In this document: positions 4,475 through 11,555 of the stretch, one piece after another
How the letters are laid out: each line of letters starts with the position of its first letter
Position numbering within the stretch: the first letter of the stretch is position 1
Virus genome (UHGV): UHGV-1627304
Length of the DNA stretch: 12,211 nucleotides
DNA from: a virus
Strand: one strand, 5' to 3'
Translations under genes and position numbers: made by a program
The notes under the pieces: model-generated
What the model was told of the DNA's origin: nothing
Databases searched by the model: none
The model's input: the letters and a program-made list of their open reading frames with translations, nothing else

Positions 4475-5191
<717 letters not shown>

Positions 5192-5209: not shown

Positions 5210-5650
5210 ATGAGAGAAGAAAAAATAATAACAATCTACACAACGGCGGTAAAACCCGGGCTGGCAATCACTCCTTTTATGACACCAGATCCTATAATAG
5301 TGTCGGAAGAATACCCTTGTTCCGGCTCATTTTACCTAACTGCAATAATGTACTTCGAGCACGAAAAAAAATACACTACCGAACTTGATGTCGTATTCAA
5401 TGGAGAATCGGTTTTACCTGATATCTCTAGCAATCAAGAGCAACTGCAAACATTTATGTTTTCTCCTGTCAATGAAAAATATGTTGTGGTTGGCACATAT
5501 CTTTTCGTTAAAAACATCAAACTTATAGAAACAGGAACATATGACATAATTTATCGCATCTTTGAAGACATTGATGGTAATCTTAGCGAAGTTATTGATG
5601 AAAAAAAATGCGCTCTTATTTCAACCACCCCGAACAGAGATAAGGAATGA
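5210..5650 (+). CDS. Hypothetical protein (146 aa, no predicted TM segment), first gene of a two-gene cassette at the rexA/rexB position
   Basis: ORF starts 19 nt after the cI stop with AAGGA SD; ATGA overlap with the next gene. Visibly AT-rich. No motif I recognise; not RexA-like in size or sequence. Confidence 0.75.
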   Translation: MREEKIITIYTTAVKPGLAITPFMTPDPIIVSEEYPCSGSFYLTAIMYFEHEKKYTTELDVVFNGESVLPDISSNQEQLQTFMFSPVNEKYVVVGTYLFVKNIKLIETGTYDIIYRIFEDIDGNLSEVIDEKKCALISTTPNRDKE

Positions 5651-6003
5651 AACGACATCTGTACGCTGTGCCTCTTGACAGGAGTAAAGTTGATAATTTT
5701 CCACATAACCACCATAATGATGAGACATATGGTGGTGGTAACGGTGGAGGTGGTGACATGTTACAGCGCATAAAAATTCTTGAAGATAAAGTCGCAACCA
5801 TGGCGACCGACATCGCTGTAATTAAGTCTAACTATGCAACATCTGCCAATGTAGAATCTGTTAAAACAGACATAGCTAATGCAAAAGCAGAACTTCACAG
5901 CGCAATGAGACTCCAAGCCATGGCTATTATTGGTTCAGTTCTTGCAGCCGTTGGAACTGGTGTTGGGTTAATAATAAAAATGATGCCATCACTACCTCAC
6001 TAA
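5647..6003 (+). CDS. Hypothetical small membrane protein (118 aa from ATG 5647, or 82 aa from ATG 5758): His/Gly-rich N-terminus, predicted coiled-coil, C-terminal hydrophobic helix
   Basis: Translation MKRHLYAVPLDRSKVDNFPHNHHNDETYGGGNGGGGDMLQRIKILEDKVATMATDIAVIKS...LQAMAIIGSVLAAVGTGVGLIIKMMPSLPH. Hydrophobic stretch AMAIIGSVLAAVGTGVGLII near the C-terminus. An internal in-frame ATG at 5758 has a better SD (GGAGG, 7-nt spacing). Followed directly by a terminator. Confidence 0.7.
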   Translation: MKRHLYAVPLDRSKVDNFPHNHHNDETYGGGNGGGGDMLQRIKILEDKVATMATDIAVIKSNYATSANVESVKTDIANAKAELHSAMRLQAMAIIGSVLAAVGTGVGLIIKMMPSLPH

Positions 6004-6015
6004 GAATCTACACAA

Positions 6016-6040
6016 CCCGGCCTCAGCGCCGGGTTTTCTT
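6016..6040 (+). terminator. Intrinsic terminator ending the cI operon (timm-like)
   Basis: cccggc-ctcagc-gccggg stem-loop (6016-6033) followed by TTTTCTTT. The flanking sequence matches the lambda region between rexB and PL as recalled. Confidence 0.75.
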
Positions 6041-6194: not shown

Positions 6195-6264
6195 AACCAT
6201 CTGCGGTGATAAATTATCTCTGGCGGTGTTGACATAAATACCACTGGCGGTGATACTAAGCACA
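6195..6264 (+). promoter_or_regulatory. Left operator OL3-OL2-OL1 with PL promoter
   Basis: OL3 6195-6211 aaccatctgcggtgata, OL2 6215-6231 tatctctggcggtgttg, OL1 6239-6255 taccactggcggtgata. PL -35 ttgaca 6229-6234 and -10 gatact 6252-6257. Classic lambda PL sequence. Confidence 0.85.
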
Positions 6265-6297
6265 TCAGCAGGACGCACTAACCACCATTGAAGGTGA

Positions 6298-6328
6298 GGC
6301 TCTTAAAAATTTAGCCCTGAAGAAGGGC
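6298..6328 (+). promoter_or_regulatory. nutL site (boxA-like GCTCTTAAAAA, boxB GCCCTGAAGAAGGGC)
   Basis: boxB hairpin gccctgaagaagggc at 6314-6328 with boxA-like sequence just upstream, in the PL leader ahead of N. Confidence 0.7.
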
Positions 6329-6438
6329 GGCATTCAAAGCAGAAAGCTTTGAGTAGCGCGAAATGCAGCTGCAAGACAGCAACCGTGGAGATAAGCATCA
6401 CGGCGCGTTACTCAAAGCTAACTGACAGGAGAATCCAG

Positions 6439-6771
6439 ATGGATGCACAAGCACGCCGCCGCGAACGTCGCGCAGAGAAACAGGCTCAATGGAAAGCAGC
6501 AAATCCCCTGTTGGTTGGGGTAAGCGCAAAACCAGTTAACCGCCCTATTCTCTCGCTGAATCGCAAACCGAAATCACGAGTAGAAAGCGCACTGAATCCG
6601 ATAGACCTTACGGTGCTGGCTGAATACCACGAACAGATTGAAAGCAACCTGCAACGTATTGAACGCAAGAATCAGCGCACATGGTACAGCAAGCCACGCA
6701 GTGAAATGGGTGTGACTTGTGTTGGTCGCCAGAAGCAACGCGGAAAATCAATTCCAGCTTATTACGATTGA
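6439..6771 (+). CDS. N: Antitermination protein N (110 aa)
   Basis: MDAQARRRERRAEKQAQWKAANPLLVGVSAKPVNRPILSLNRKPKSRVESALNPIDLTVLAEYHEQIESNLQRIERKNQRTWYSKP... matches lambda N (arginine-rich boxB-binding motif at the N-terminus); C-terminal ~20 aa diverge. Start at 6439 with GGAGAA SD, not the upstream ATG at 6349. Confidence 0.9.
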   Translation: MDAQARRRERRAEKQAQWKAANPLLVGVSAKPVNRPILSLNRKPKSRVESALNPIDLTVLAEYHEQIESNLQRIERKNQRTWYSKPRSEMGVTCVGRQKQRGKSIPAYYD

Positions 6772-6779
6772 GGTGAGCC

Positions 6780-6917
6780 ATGCTCAAGAAAGTCAAACGC
6801 CGACTTTACAAAGAAGGTAGATATTCATGCCAGTTGCCAAAATGCGACACAACAAAATGGAGTGTCGATGATTGGTGTAACTGGATAGATAGATACGGAA
6901 CTTGGTGGGATAAATAA
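6780..6917 (+). CDS. Hypothetical small Cys/Trp-rich protein (45 aa)
   Basis: Own translation: MLKKVKRRLYKEGRYSCQLPKCDTTKWSVDDWCNWIDRYGTWWDK. GAGGTGAG SD-like sequence upstream; begins 9 nt after the N stop. Weak call on size alone. Confidence 0.3.
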   Translation: MLKKVKRRLYKEGRYSCQLPKCDTTKWSVDDWCNWIDRYGTWWDK

Positions 6918-6974
6918 CAGGTAACTTAAGCGTATTTACTTTCGCAGCAAACCACTTATTTGAGAGGAATTAAT

Positions 6975-7598
6975 ATGTCATCAATCCGCTTAACTACGAG
7001 AATGAAAGAGAAAATCGCTCGTAACGCTTTAATTAAGTCTGGGGTTTTCACTGAACTTGAAGAAGTAACAAAGTTAAAGAACCAGCTTGCACTTGACGCC
7101 AGAGTTATTGCGTTTGGCGGTAAAAAGAAAACTGAGGAAGTGGATCAGTTATCATCCAGGTTAGTAGCTATAAGTGAAGAACTTGAAAAGATGGGATGTT
7201 CATTTTACTCATACGATGTTCGTTCTACTTCAATTTATCTGACTGTATCTGGCAGAAGGGTTGGATGGCATTCATATGGGAAAGACGGCAACGGCGAAGA
7301 TATATTGCTCCCTACTCCAACCAAAGATAAATGCATGTTTGATGCAGAACACGAAATAACAAAAAGGTTTGATGAAATCTGCGCATTGCAACAAAAACTT
7401 GAAGCCAAGAAAAAGGATATCGAATCAAATGTATGGGCTGCTTTGAACTCAGTCACAACAGTTAAGCGACTTATTGAAGTTTGGCCTGAAAGCAAAGAAT
7501 TGCTACCAAAAGAAGCAGACAAAGCAAGTACAGCACTTCCTGCTTTACGGGTAGAAGATTTGAATAAGATGATTGGACTTCCTTCCGAGTCCGCATAG
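6975..7598 (+). CDS. Hypothetical protein (207 aa), unknown function, at the position lambda uses for ral/sieB-type accessory genes
   Basis: Long ORF with GAGAGGA SD 6 nt before ATG at 6975 (track shows a TTG-initiated extension from 6960). AT-rich. Lys/Glu-rich helical-looking stretches. No motif recognised. Confidence 0.75.
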   Translation: MSSIRLTTRMKEKIARNALIKSGVFTELEEVTKLKNQLALDARVIAFGGKKKTEEVDQLSSRLVAISEELEKMGCSFYSYDVRSTSIYLTVSGRRVGWHSYGKDGNGEDILLPTPTKDKCMFDAEHEITKRFDEICALQQKLEAKKKDIESNVWAALNSVTTVKRLIEVWPESKELLPKEADKASTALPALRVEDLNKMIGLPSESA

Positions 7599-7732
7599 TC
7601 GGCCTTTATTTTTGGCACTAACAACAGAATAAACACTGCACTGTGTATTCATTCCAACGAGTGAATACACGGAGCAATGTCGCTCGTAACTAAACAGGAG
7701 CCGACTTGTTCTGATTATTGGAAATCTTCTTT

Positions 7733-7757
7733 GCCCTCCAGTGTGAGGGCTTTTTTA
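7733..7757 (+). terminator. Intrinsic terminator upstream of cIII (tL-type, expected to be read through under N antitermination)
   Basis: gccctc-cagtgt-gagggc hairpin (7733-7750) followed by TTTTTT (7751-7756). Confidence 0.55.
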
Positions 7758-7822
7758 TATGCATACCAATAACGCTTCACTCGAGGCGTTTTCGTTATGC
7801 AATCAAATATAAGGAGTTACCC

Positions 7823-7957
7823 ATGATGCACTTTCAGCTCGCGGGTAGCGGCGTCATGTCCGCTTTCTACCCGCACGAATCTGAATTATCACGCCGAGTT
7901 AAACAATTAATCAGAGCAGCAAAGAAACAACTGGAGGCGTTATGCGCAATGAAATAG
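7823..7957 (+). CDS. cIII: CIII-like protein (44 aa), probable FtsH-inhibitor that stabilises CII
   Basis: MMHFQLAGSGVMSAFYPHESELSRRVKQLIRAAKKQLEALCAMK. The central HESELSRRVKQLIRAAKKQL aligns by eye with the lambda CIII core (SESLLERITRKLRDGWKRL, from memory). AAGGAG SD 5 nt upstream. The track ORF starts earlier (7718) but that part spans the terminator. Confidence 0.55.
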   Translation: MMHFQLAGSGVMSAFYPHESELSRRVKQLIRAAKKQLEALCAMK

Positions 7958-10003: not shown

Positions 10004-10483
10004 ATGAAAATCTGCTCAAGATGCCATCAACAGAAGGAAGAAAGGGACTTTCAAATCAGAAGAGCATCCAGAGATGGATTAACTGCCGCTTGCCGGGCTT
10101 GCCTGGCTGAATACGACAAAGAGCGCGCGGGATTGCCACATCGAGTATCAGCAAGGAGAGAATATCAATCATCGGAACGCGGCAGAGGACGGTGTAACGC
10201 AGCCAAAAAGCGGTTCATTCAGAGCAACCCATGGAAAAGAAAAGCCCACATCATCGTGGGTAATTTTTTGCGCGACGGTAAGCTAATCCGACCACCACAA
10301 TGTGAGTGCTGCGGATCAGAATGTAAACCACAGGCGCACCACTGCGACTACAGCAAACCAACCGATGTGATGTGGCTCTGCAAGTCATGCCATGTCGAGT
10401 GGCACAAACATAACAAACCTATCTACCCAGACGAGGAACCAGTAACTCTCCCCTTCCCTCGTCACGCTATTCACGCAATTTAA
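10004..10483 (+). CDS. Zinc-ribbon / HNH-like nuclease-domain protein (159 aa)
   Basis: N-terminal CxxC...CxxC (CSRCHQQ...CRAC) and C-terminal CECCGSE...AHHCDY...CKSCHVEWH, an HNH-type metal-binding motif. AGGAG SD 6 nt upstream. Confidence 0.7.
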   Translation: MKICSRCHQQKEERDFQIRRASRDGLTAACRACLAEYDKERAGLPHRVSARREYQSSERGRGRCNAAKKRFIQSNPWKRKAHIIVGNFLRDGKLIRPPQCECCGSECKPQAHHCDYSKPTDVMWLCKSCHVEWHKHNKPIYPDEEPVTLPFPRHAIHAI

Positions 10484-10496
10484 TCAGGAGAAAATC

Positions 10497-10793
10497 ATGC
10501 CAGCGCCTTTGTATGGTGCGGATGACGCGCGCCGCTGTTCCGGCAATTCCGTATCGGAGGTGCTGGATAAATTCAGAAAAAACTACGATCGGATAATGTC
10601 GCTACCGCAGGAAACGAAAGAGGAAAAGGAATTTCGCCACTGTATATGGCTTGCAGAGAAAGAAGAACGCGAGCGAATTTACCAGACATCAATCCGACCA
10701 TTCCGCAAAGCAACATATACCCACTTCCCTGAATATATCGACCCGCGCCTGCGTAATTACCGCTCACGCTATGGCGCTATCAGTAATGACTGA
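10497..10793 (+). CDS. Hypothetical protein (98 aa)
   Basis: ORF with AGGAG SD 6 nt upstream; same strand and operon context as its neighbours. No motif recognised. Confidence 0.6.
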
Positions 10794-10803
10794 GGAATTT
10801 ACC

Positions 10804-10968
10804 ATGAGAGGACTTGCATACAATCCCGGCATTCTTCCGGCAGAAATGATTATTCGCCAACGCGTAAAGCCAATGCCATCGAGAGAGGAATTGCTTAAGA
10901 GAAATAGTTTCGGCTCTGTTAATGACAACAAATATCTGAATGCTATGTGGCGGAGTGGGAAGAAATGA
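10804..10968 (+). CDS. Hypothetical small protein (54 aa)
   Basis: [61 protein letters not shown] 8 nt upstream of ATG 10804; stop overlaps the next gene's ATG (ATGA). The longer track ORF from 10651 overlaps the preceding gene and is less likely. Confidence 0.4.
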
Positions 10969-11555
10969 AACAAATGTCACTAATTGAGATGAATGGTTTT
11001 CTGAAAGGTAAATGCATCCCCCGAGATTTAAATGTTAACGAAACAAACGCTGAATATCTTGTCCGTAAGTTCGGTGAACTTGAATCAAAACTGGAAACGG
11101 CGTTGCGGGAGTGTCTTTCTGCTGGAATCACGATTGATAACCTTGAGGCCAAGTGCACTGCGCTGGCAGCGGAGAATGCGGGGATGAAGTCGGTCATTGA
11201 ATACTGCATTAATCCCGACAATCAGCCTGAATACCATGACCAGGGCATGGGATGTGGAGTTGAAGACCACGGCTACCAGCGCGACGGCTATTCGGCTTGT
11301 TACTACGGATGGGAGTCGGCAATGGAACGCGTCTACTCAGAGGTTATTCCAGACGCCATTCCAGAAACCCCAACCACCGATGCTTTCCTGGCTGAAGTGC
11401 GGGCGCAGGGGGTAGAGATGTACGCAGATAACCTCGACAACGGAGCAGACGACGCAGAACGAGGTGGTTTTGATTATGCCGTTAAGTTTCTACGCAGTGA
11501 AGCGTCTAGTGTACGTTTGTTCGCCGACCAGCTTCGCAAAGGAGGCGACCAGTGA
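10965..11555 (+). CDS. Hypothetical protein (196 aa), possibly Ead/Ea22-like
   Basis: Long ORF in operon context; start taken at ATG 10965 (coupled to the upstream stop) rather than the track's GTG at 10947. N-terminal coiled-coil-like region and acidic C-terminal half. Family assignment is from vague recollection only. Confidence 0.65.

Follow-up and report, generated by a model that had tools for sequence, protein, structure and literature searches.

What do the genes that directly follow the antiterminator gene N contribute to the early region of a lambdoid prophage? The question is raised by UHGV virus genome UHGV-1627304, of which a stretch of 12,211 nt (hereafter the window) was analyzed and in which two open reading frames (ORFs) encoding 45 and 207 aa follow N on the plus strand. 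A sequence-only reading had recognized no motif here and had proposed anti-defence or host-takeover functions. Profile searches place both proteins in Pfam families. The 207-aa gene (6975-7598) encodes a full-length, single-domain protein of the Nmad5 family: residues 4-203 align to positions 1-206 of the Pfam profile (PF18757; E = 3.7e-72, 243.2 bits against a cut-off of 27), and PHROG 1965 is matched at E = 1e-83. The 45-aa gene (ORF45, 6780-6917) encodes a DUF5484 (T4 gp55.4-like) microprotein that is unrelated to Nmad5 (PF17583; E = 2.6e-12, 46.7 bits against a cut-off of 27; PHROG 1871, E = 1.4e-22). NCBIfam models gave no match to either ORF. Together with a median ratio of nonsynonymous to synonymous polymorphism (pN/pS) of 0.31 for the 207-aa gene, calculated from 63 distinct nucleotide alleles of related prophages, these matches confirm that both ORFs are genuine at these coordinates; judged by its pN/pS, the 207-aa gene is protein-coding and moderately constrained. 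On the function of the Nmad5 protein we arrive below at a tentative proposal, an accessory role at phage DNA or its replication machinery.

The start codons and base composition of the two genes are readily assigned. ORF45 opens with an ATG located 8 nt past the N stop codon and is preceded by the Shine-Dalgarno sequence GAGGTGA. The mechanical ORF list opens the 207-aa frame at a TTG at 6960, but we place the start at the ATG at 6975, which is preceded by GAGAGGA, because homologues begin MSS(I/V)RLT. Both genes are AT-rich (G+C contents of 39.7% for the Nmad5 gene and 39.9% for ORF45; N has 50.5% and the whole window 46.6%), in agreement with the foreign composition that had been noted earlier.

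The gene is already labeled 'Nmad5 family putative nucleotide modification protein' by RefSeq in E. coli genomes, and the encoded protein is 99.5% identical to a hypothetical protein of phage mEp235 and 97% identical to one of HK542. An exhaustive profile search (E ≤ 0.001) returned 2281 representative clusters at 50% identity, whose hosts span Escherichia, Vibrio, Pseudomonas and Acinetobacter, plus a cyanophage. The best 150 relatives are almost all stand-alone proteins of 190–220 aa that match end to end, and no fusion partner or fused enzymatic domain was found among them. PADLOC-DB v2 defence-protein models matched neither ORF at E ≤ 0.1. Literature on mEp235, HK542, HK244 and Kapi1 contained nothing on the Nmad5 gene, and the Pfam and PHROG accession numbers and the term 'DUF5484' are absent from the searchable papers. 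Both genes belong to catalogued families that are annotated in many public genomes; they represent a common prophage module and not a new kind of gene.

Alignment with lambda DNA defined the slot in which the two genes reside. Lambda aligns to 6413-6695 (98% identity, the 5' part of N), to 7595-7761 (96%, the ral-ea10 intergenic segment) and to 7761-7799 (the ea10-cIII spacer), covering only the flanks and nothing across 6696-7594. Because both flanks align, the DNA from 6696 to 7594 replaces the lambda segment containing the 3' end of N, sieB, orf28 and ral. The breakpoints at 6695 and 7595 thus demonstrate what the sequence-only reading had surmised, that the genes occupy the ral/sieB slot, and the right one falls at the stop codon of the Nmad5 gene. 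The left breakpoint falls within the lambda-type N gene (6439-6771, plus strand; Pfam N36, E = 3.3e-25), which is 98% identical to lambda N at the DNA level up to 6695 but differs from it over the last ∼25 codons (6696-6771). The encoded protein ends in QKQRGKSIPAYYD, whereas N alleles that directly abut Nmad5 end in QKMKLGSKPLI. Since the variant tail begins beyond 6695, the mosaic joint lies inside N. This tail seems to travel with the DUF5484 gene, and the same block is common to SfI and phi458. The lambda proteins Ral, Orf28 and SieB are encoded in the same slot between N and the ral-ea10 segment and are likewise accessory and dispensable, but they share no sequence similarity with the window proteins; Ral is only 66 aa in length, and Pfam and PHROG scans of both ORFs gave Nmad5 and DUF5484 with no similarity to Ral or SieB. 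In addition, sieB is on the opposite strand in the lambda record examined, whereas the window genes are on the strand transcribed from PL. The edge of the slot is marked by the next conserved gene, cIII (7823-7957, plus strand; Pfam cIII, E = 2e-30).

Leftward transcription from PL runs along the plus strand of the window. The PL promoter lies inside the OL operator region at 6229-6257 (TTGACA, 17-nt spacer, GATACT; 10 of 12 matches in a promoter scan), in DNA that is 95% identical to lambda OL/PL. A nutL site could be read from the sequence at 6299-6328 on the same strand, within the block that aligns with lambda nutL; it consists of a boxA-like GCTCTTA (6299-6305) and the boxB element GCCCTGAAGAAGGGC (6314-6328), whose hairpin the scan also flagged on the minus strand. 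In lambda the first leftward terminator, tL1, is located after N, whereas the window has no terminator-like site at this place. Neither a terminator scan nor a separate hairpin-plus-T-tract scan of 6265-7830 detected terminator-like sites between PL and 7670, and therefore both genes would be made together with N without waiting for antitermination. This agrees with the earlier proposal of early expression from PL. Terminator-like sites cluster at 7672-7790; the first that resemble intrinsic terminators downstream of PL, as identified by the terminator scan, folding and the hairpin-plus-T-tract scan, are on the plus strand at 7733-7750 (GCCCTC-N6-GAGGGC followed by TTTTTT) and 7771-7790. These convincing sites are ∼135 nt past the stop codon of the 207-aa gene and ahead of cIII. 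By contrast, the intrinsic terminator that had been placed directly after the 207-aa gene corresponds to a weak hairpin and T-tract at 7574-7615 (z-score −1.65), right at the stop codon. A strong 14-bp hairpin without a T-tract is present at 7641-7672 on the plus strand (fold of 7630-7690, −24.9 kcal/mol, z-score −5.55), in the segment that is 96% identical to the lambda ral-ea10 intergenic DNA. It has no match in Rfam, which gave no matches across the whole window at gathering thresholds, and may serve in the processing or regulation of the PL transcript. No promoter-like site was found by promoter scan between N and the two ORFs. The arrangement suggests a single unit in the order PL, N, ORF45, Nmad5, terminators and cIII.

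The distribution of Nmad5 was sampled in 80 related IMG/VR prophage loci. The protein is 95–100% identical across these loci, and their cI proteins range from 32% to 100% identity to the cI of the window. The gene directly upstream of Nmad5 encodes an N-type arginine-rich antiterminator in 70 of the 80 loci, represented by at least five different alleles, and at least 14 kinds of genes are found as the downstream neighbor. DUF5484 accompanies Nmad5 in only four loci. HK542 contains Nmad5 without DUF5484, and SfI contains DUF5484, followed by orf28 and ral, without Nmad5; ral occupies the same slot in sibling phages. The rare co-occurrence and the separations in HK542 and SfI therefore identify ORF45 and Nmad5 as independent modules, and the idea that they form a two-gene system was rejected. 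A 1-kb query spanning the slot found similar DNA in 2,207 of 5,426 complete E. coli genomes, a count that includes the shared flanks. Stx2a phages carry an Nmad5 gene that is interrupted close to codon 37 by an insertion sequence (IS) element of the IS3 family, whose two ORFs (108 and 296 aa) resemble those of IS629 (Stx2a phage Stx2_716, LC616058.1 10500-14500; locus L088). Because these split copies occur in Stx2a-converting phages, Nmad5 is dispensable, and they constitute a natural knock-out in a phage group of clinical importance. At 43–48% identity, the homologues of Providencia, Serratia and a metagenomic temperate phage are each encoded by the first called gene past the repressor, on the same strand.

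An AlphaFold2 model of the 207-aa protein, generated from a 24-sequence alignment (predicted local distance difference test [pLDDT] 85.8, predicted template modeling score [pTM] 0.70), contains three long helices (residues 8-72), a small β element (86-100), a long helix (127-158) and short C-terminal helices. No solved structure matched the Nmad5 fold and no enzyme-like fold was recognized; PDB sequence and profile searches were empty for both the Nmad5 and DUF5484 families. Conservation was evaluated in a deep alignment of 68 sequences that are 25–57% identical to the query. Besides the initiator Met, residues that are invariant or at least 90% conserved are I14, A18, R43, G48, G49, G93, T162, L166, W170, P171, E172, L176, P178, P189, L196, N197, G201 and P203. 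They are mainly Gly, Pro, Leu, Ile, Ala and Trp, plus R43, T162, E172 and N197, a set that does not look like an active site. W170, P171, E172, P178, P189, L196, N197, G201 and P203 belong to the C-terminal family signature WPE...LPA..V.DLN..IGLP, which is present in the window protein. Charged residues retained in at least 70% of the sequences are the basic R5, K11, K21, K35, R43, K164 and R165 and the acidic E172 and E175. The protein has an isoelectric point (pI) of 7.6 and a net charge of +1 (family median pI 7.7), and with this pI and no structural match it does not resemble acidic DNA mimics of the Ocr/ArdA type. The most conserved C-terminal stretch (about residues 189-203) is modeled at low confidence (pLDDT ∼47–55), which fits a docking motif that would fold on a partner. 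We infer that Nmad5 is a binder or adaptor and not an enzyme.

The genes that surround Nmad5 in distant phages were compared in order to identify a common setting. In YuA, gp15 (Nmad5) is positioned between gp14, which contains the helical domain of 5-hydroxymethyldeoxyuridine (5-hmdU) DNA kinase (HMUDK_hel), and gp17, a thymidylate-synthase-like hydroxymethylase; a pyridoxal phosphate enzyme, a radical-SAM enzyme and a kinase are encoded upstream. The cyanophage Pam3 has the order aGPT-Pplase1, Nmad5 (gp51) and thymidylate synthase, and in both phages Nmad5 lies near the DNA polymerase gene. The same thymidine-hypermodification cluster has been listed for phage SN1 (SN1_019; PMC9476957). The YuA, SN1 and Pam3 proteins, like that of the window, are stand-alone, full-length Nmad5 proteins of ∼190–210 aa (YuA gp15, E = 4.2e-56), and YuA gp15 has the C-terminal WPE...DLN..IGLP signature and is 45% identical over window residues 121-207. 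However, their genes are inside hypermodification clusters, whereas the window copy is without such partners and follows N in a temperate phage. Genes for a hydroxymethylase, 5-hmdU kinase, aGPT-Pplase, glycosyltransferase or methyltransferase are lacking from the 12.2-kb window, and hypermodification partners are also absent from the HK542 early region and from most other lineages examined.

In other lineages Nmad5 is found with further genes of DNA metabolism. Klebsiella phage MY01 has the order PolA, thymidylate synthase, Nmad5, PD-(D/E)XK nuclease and primase; Nmad5 is directly upstream of replication protein O in Vibrio phage Athena1 and downstream of the helicase-primase in Edwardsiella phage eiAU; and in lambdoids it heads an operon with Rad52/Erf, SSB and Abc2. 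Other placements include an opposite-strand insert among the head genes of Dhillonviruses, a position between terminase and portal in ZRG1, and arrays of small early genes of unknown function in Vibrio D454 and Bas95. What the contexts share is a link to modules in which phage DNA is replicated, recombined and modified, rather than to base modification itself; those in unrelated phages suggest DNA metabolism no less strongly than anti-defence. A block consisting of a DUF2800 (PD-(D/E)XK) nuclease, an Enc34-type SSB and a family-A polymerase recurs with Nmad5 in two of the phages: in a Providencia prophage (locus L099) Nmad5 heads it, followed by two ORFs of unknown function, the nuclease, SSB and PolA, and in Acinetobacter phage Scuro (locus L090) Nmad5 is between SSB and PolA, with the nuclease ahead of SSB. 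Because the hosts are very distant, this block may tell more about function than the hypermodification clusters.

Only one study in the searchable literature touches the Nmad5 family experimentally. Yamashita et al. (2025; PMC11846954) found that Dhillonviruses escape the Tmn defence by a single Lys-to-Glu change in Nmad5 (K216E in SM_A8 and K296E in PhiSMS22) and that reverting the change restores sensitivity. Deletion of the gene gave viable phage that did not escape, and attempts to clone it failed, apparently because of toxicity (PMC11846954). The Dhillonvirus proteins (SM_A8 CDS7 and PhiSMS22 CDS6) belong to the same family as the window protein (E = 2.8e-55; 33% identical over residues 103-203), but they are 254 aa or longer with an expanded middle region and are encoded on the opposite strand among the head genes of a virulent phage. 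SM_A8 K216 maps to R165 of the window protein. This residue belongs to the conserved motif KRLIEVWPE, and 74% of the sequences in the deep alignment have a basic residue there. A 2026 preprint (PMC13001434) reports RIIB, termed a replisome component by its authors, as the trigger of Tmn in T2. The Tmn data show a connection of the Nmad5 family to a process that matters to Tmn but do not prove that Nmad5 is a native anti-defence factor.

Taken together, we tentatively favor the view that Nmad5 is a dispensable, non-catalytic helical early accessory protein that acts on replicating or recombining DNA or on the replisome. It would be among the first proteins made from PL and would engage phage DNA or the replisome through candidate contacts in a conserved basic face of the N-terminal helices (R5, K11, K21, K35, R43) and in the C-terminal motif K-R-L-I-E-x-W-P-E...L-P-A-x-x-V-x-D-L-N-x-x-I-G-L-P; it is itself probably not a base-modifying enzyme. 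In hypermodifying phages Nmad5 could couple the modification enzymes to new DNA, and in lambdoids it would work alone. The recurring DNA-metabolism neighbors (YuA, Pam3, MY01, Scuro, Providencia, Athena1 and the lambdoids) argue for such a role, as do the trigger of Tmn by a replisome component (PMC13001434) and the location of the escape change at the conserved basic R165. Dispensability is supported by the IS-split copies in Stx2a phages, by the absence of the gene from lambda and by the viable Dhillonvirus deletion (PMC11846954). Several points weigh on the other side. Gene neighborhood is only an association, and the Dhillonviruses, ZRG1, Vibrio D454 and Bas95 break the pattern. The net charge of this putative DNA or replisome binder is near neutral (pI 7.6). 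Rho-dependent termination between N and Nmad5, which is not readable from the sequence, cannot be excluded. Finally, the lambdoid slot classically holds anti-restriction and exclusion genes.

This last point leads to the alternative favored by the sequence-only reading, that Nmad5 serves in anti-defence or host takeover: made at once from PL, it would bind and neutralize a host immune or housekeeping protein without catalysis. We regard this as a genuine possibility, though not a probable one. Nmad5 is exactly in the slot where sibling phages have ral, it appears to be co-transcribed with N upstream of the first terminators, and it is dispensable and only moderately constrained (pN/pS 0.31); its low G+C content and mosaic spread, 95–100% identical behind at least five N alleles, and its appearance as an inserted extra gene among the structural genes of Dhillonvirus and ZRG1 are also consistent with this role. 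The toxicity of a homologue on cloning and the defeat of Tmn by a single Lys-to-Glu change at the position of R165 (PMC11846954) could be read in the same way, but wild-type Dhillonvirus Nmad5 provides no protection from Tmn and its deletion changes nothing (PMC11846954), and the escape is therefore a gain of function that does not prove native anti-defence activity. The family is, moreover, ancient and broad (2281 clusters), of constant length (∼200 aa) and often inside replication modules, and it is neither similar to known anti-restriction proteins nor acidic. Most known anti-defence proteins are narrower in spread than Nmad5.

Catalysis of a step in nucleotide or DNA-base modification, or service as an obligatory subunit, is unlikely. 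The family owes its name to its place in thymidine-hypermodification clusters, which our comparisons confirmed for YuA and Pam3 and which extends to the cluster listed for SN1 (PMC9476957). Such partner enzymes are, however, missing from the window and from most other lineages examined, and the protein exhibits no enzyme-like fold, no conserved catalytic residues and, in the top 150 relatives, no fused enzymatic domain; no experiment on a biochemical role of Nmad5 in modification was found in the searchable literature. Least probable by far is superinfection exclusion or abortive infection serving the lysogen, with Nmad5 as a functional analogue of the sieB gene that it replaces, even though the slot is the same and a homologue is toxic when cloned (PMC11846954). 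Since no promoter-like site is present between N and the gene, Nmad5 should be silent under cI repression; it is on the PL strand and not, as sieB in the lambda record, on the opposite one; it has no PADLOC match; and members of the family are frequently encoded by virulent phages (Dhillonvirus, Schitoviridae, Yuavirus), which form no lysogens. A broader idea that joins replisome association with defence is doubtful in our estimate: Nmad5 proteins would be widespread immediate-early non-enzyme factors that engage a membrane- or replisome-associated process watched by Tmn-like defences, with the lambdoid copy acting in counter-defence or replisome shielding and with R165 on the contact surface.

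Within this window, a known family in a known variable slot is an ordinary finding. The name Nmad5, however, asserts a function that rests on gene context, and demonstration of the actual role would correct or confirm an annotation propagated through RefSeq; it could also explain the sole reported phenotype, escape from Tmn. The lambdoid copies provide the cleanest test case, as the gene is alone in tractable phages (HK542 and mEp235), is part of a defined early transcript and has natural knock-outs.

The ORF45 microprotein is ∼50% identical to gp55.4 of T-even phages (50% to that of PP01), and 1,037 phage records contain matches. Residues conserved between ORF45 and gp55.4 are K6, R7, L9, K11, G13, Y15, P20, K21, D23, T24, W27 and W32. 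The sequence-only reading had described the ORF as Cys/Trp-rich; W27 and W32 are indeed conserved and the window copy has three cysteines, but no Cys is kept in the T-even homologues. A zinc site is therefore unlikely, as all three cysteines are replaced in those copies, and the idea was rejected. The T-even genes also differ in setting, being part of the 55-nrdH gene array, whereas the window copy follows N in a temperate phage. In the searchable literature gp55.4 appears solely among the transcripts listed from T2 RNA-seq, with no functional information.

The window as a whole comes from a mosaic lambdoid prophage, of which it represents the early region, and any single phage record covers at most 57% of it, the nearest being HK544, HK97 and HK542. 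Its minus strand encodes ninF, ninE, ninB, a DnaB-type helicase, O, cII and cro. The plus strand encodes a lambda-type cI (4478-5191) and two ORFs at the rexAB position, followed by OL/PL, nutL, N, ORF45 and the 207-aa gene, beyond which are cIII, kil, a small ORF, a Rad52-type recombinase, an HNH endonuclease, SSB, Abc2 and others.

The rexA/rexB position (5210-6035), directly past cI, contains ORFs of 146 aa (5210-5650), which has no Pfam match, and 118 aa (5647-6003), which has a hydrophobic C-terminal helix and weak matches to PHROGs of unknown function. Their G+C content is 36–41%, and they are closed by an intrinsic terminator at 6014-6035. Different genes are found at this position in HK542 and HK244, and homologues in locus L050 are 78% and 49% identical. 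Because expression with cI in the lysogen is expected, the two ORFs are a candidate prophage exclusion or defence cassette. Farther along the PL operon, ORFs without a Pfam match at 10004-10483 (159 aa, with several CxxC pairs) and 10947-11555 (202 aa) flank the gene for the anti-RecBCD protein Abc2 (10497-10793). The HNH endonuclease gene (PF13392; 9057-9524) is located between the Rad52-type recombinase and SSB genes and overlaps the SSB start. Of the 80 related prophage loci, only 3 contain a 100% identical copy and one more has a weak match (35%); the gene looks like a mobile homing-endonuclease insertion.

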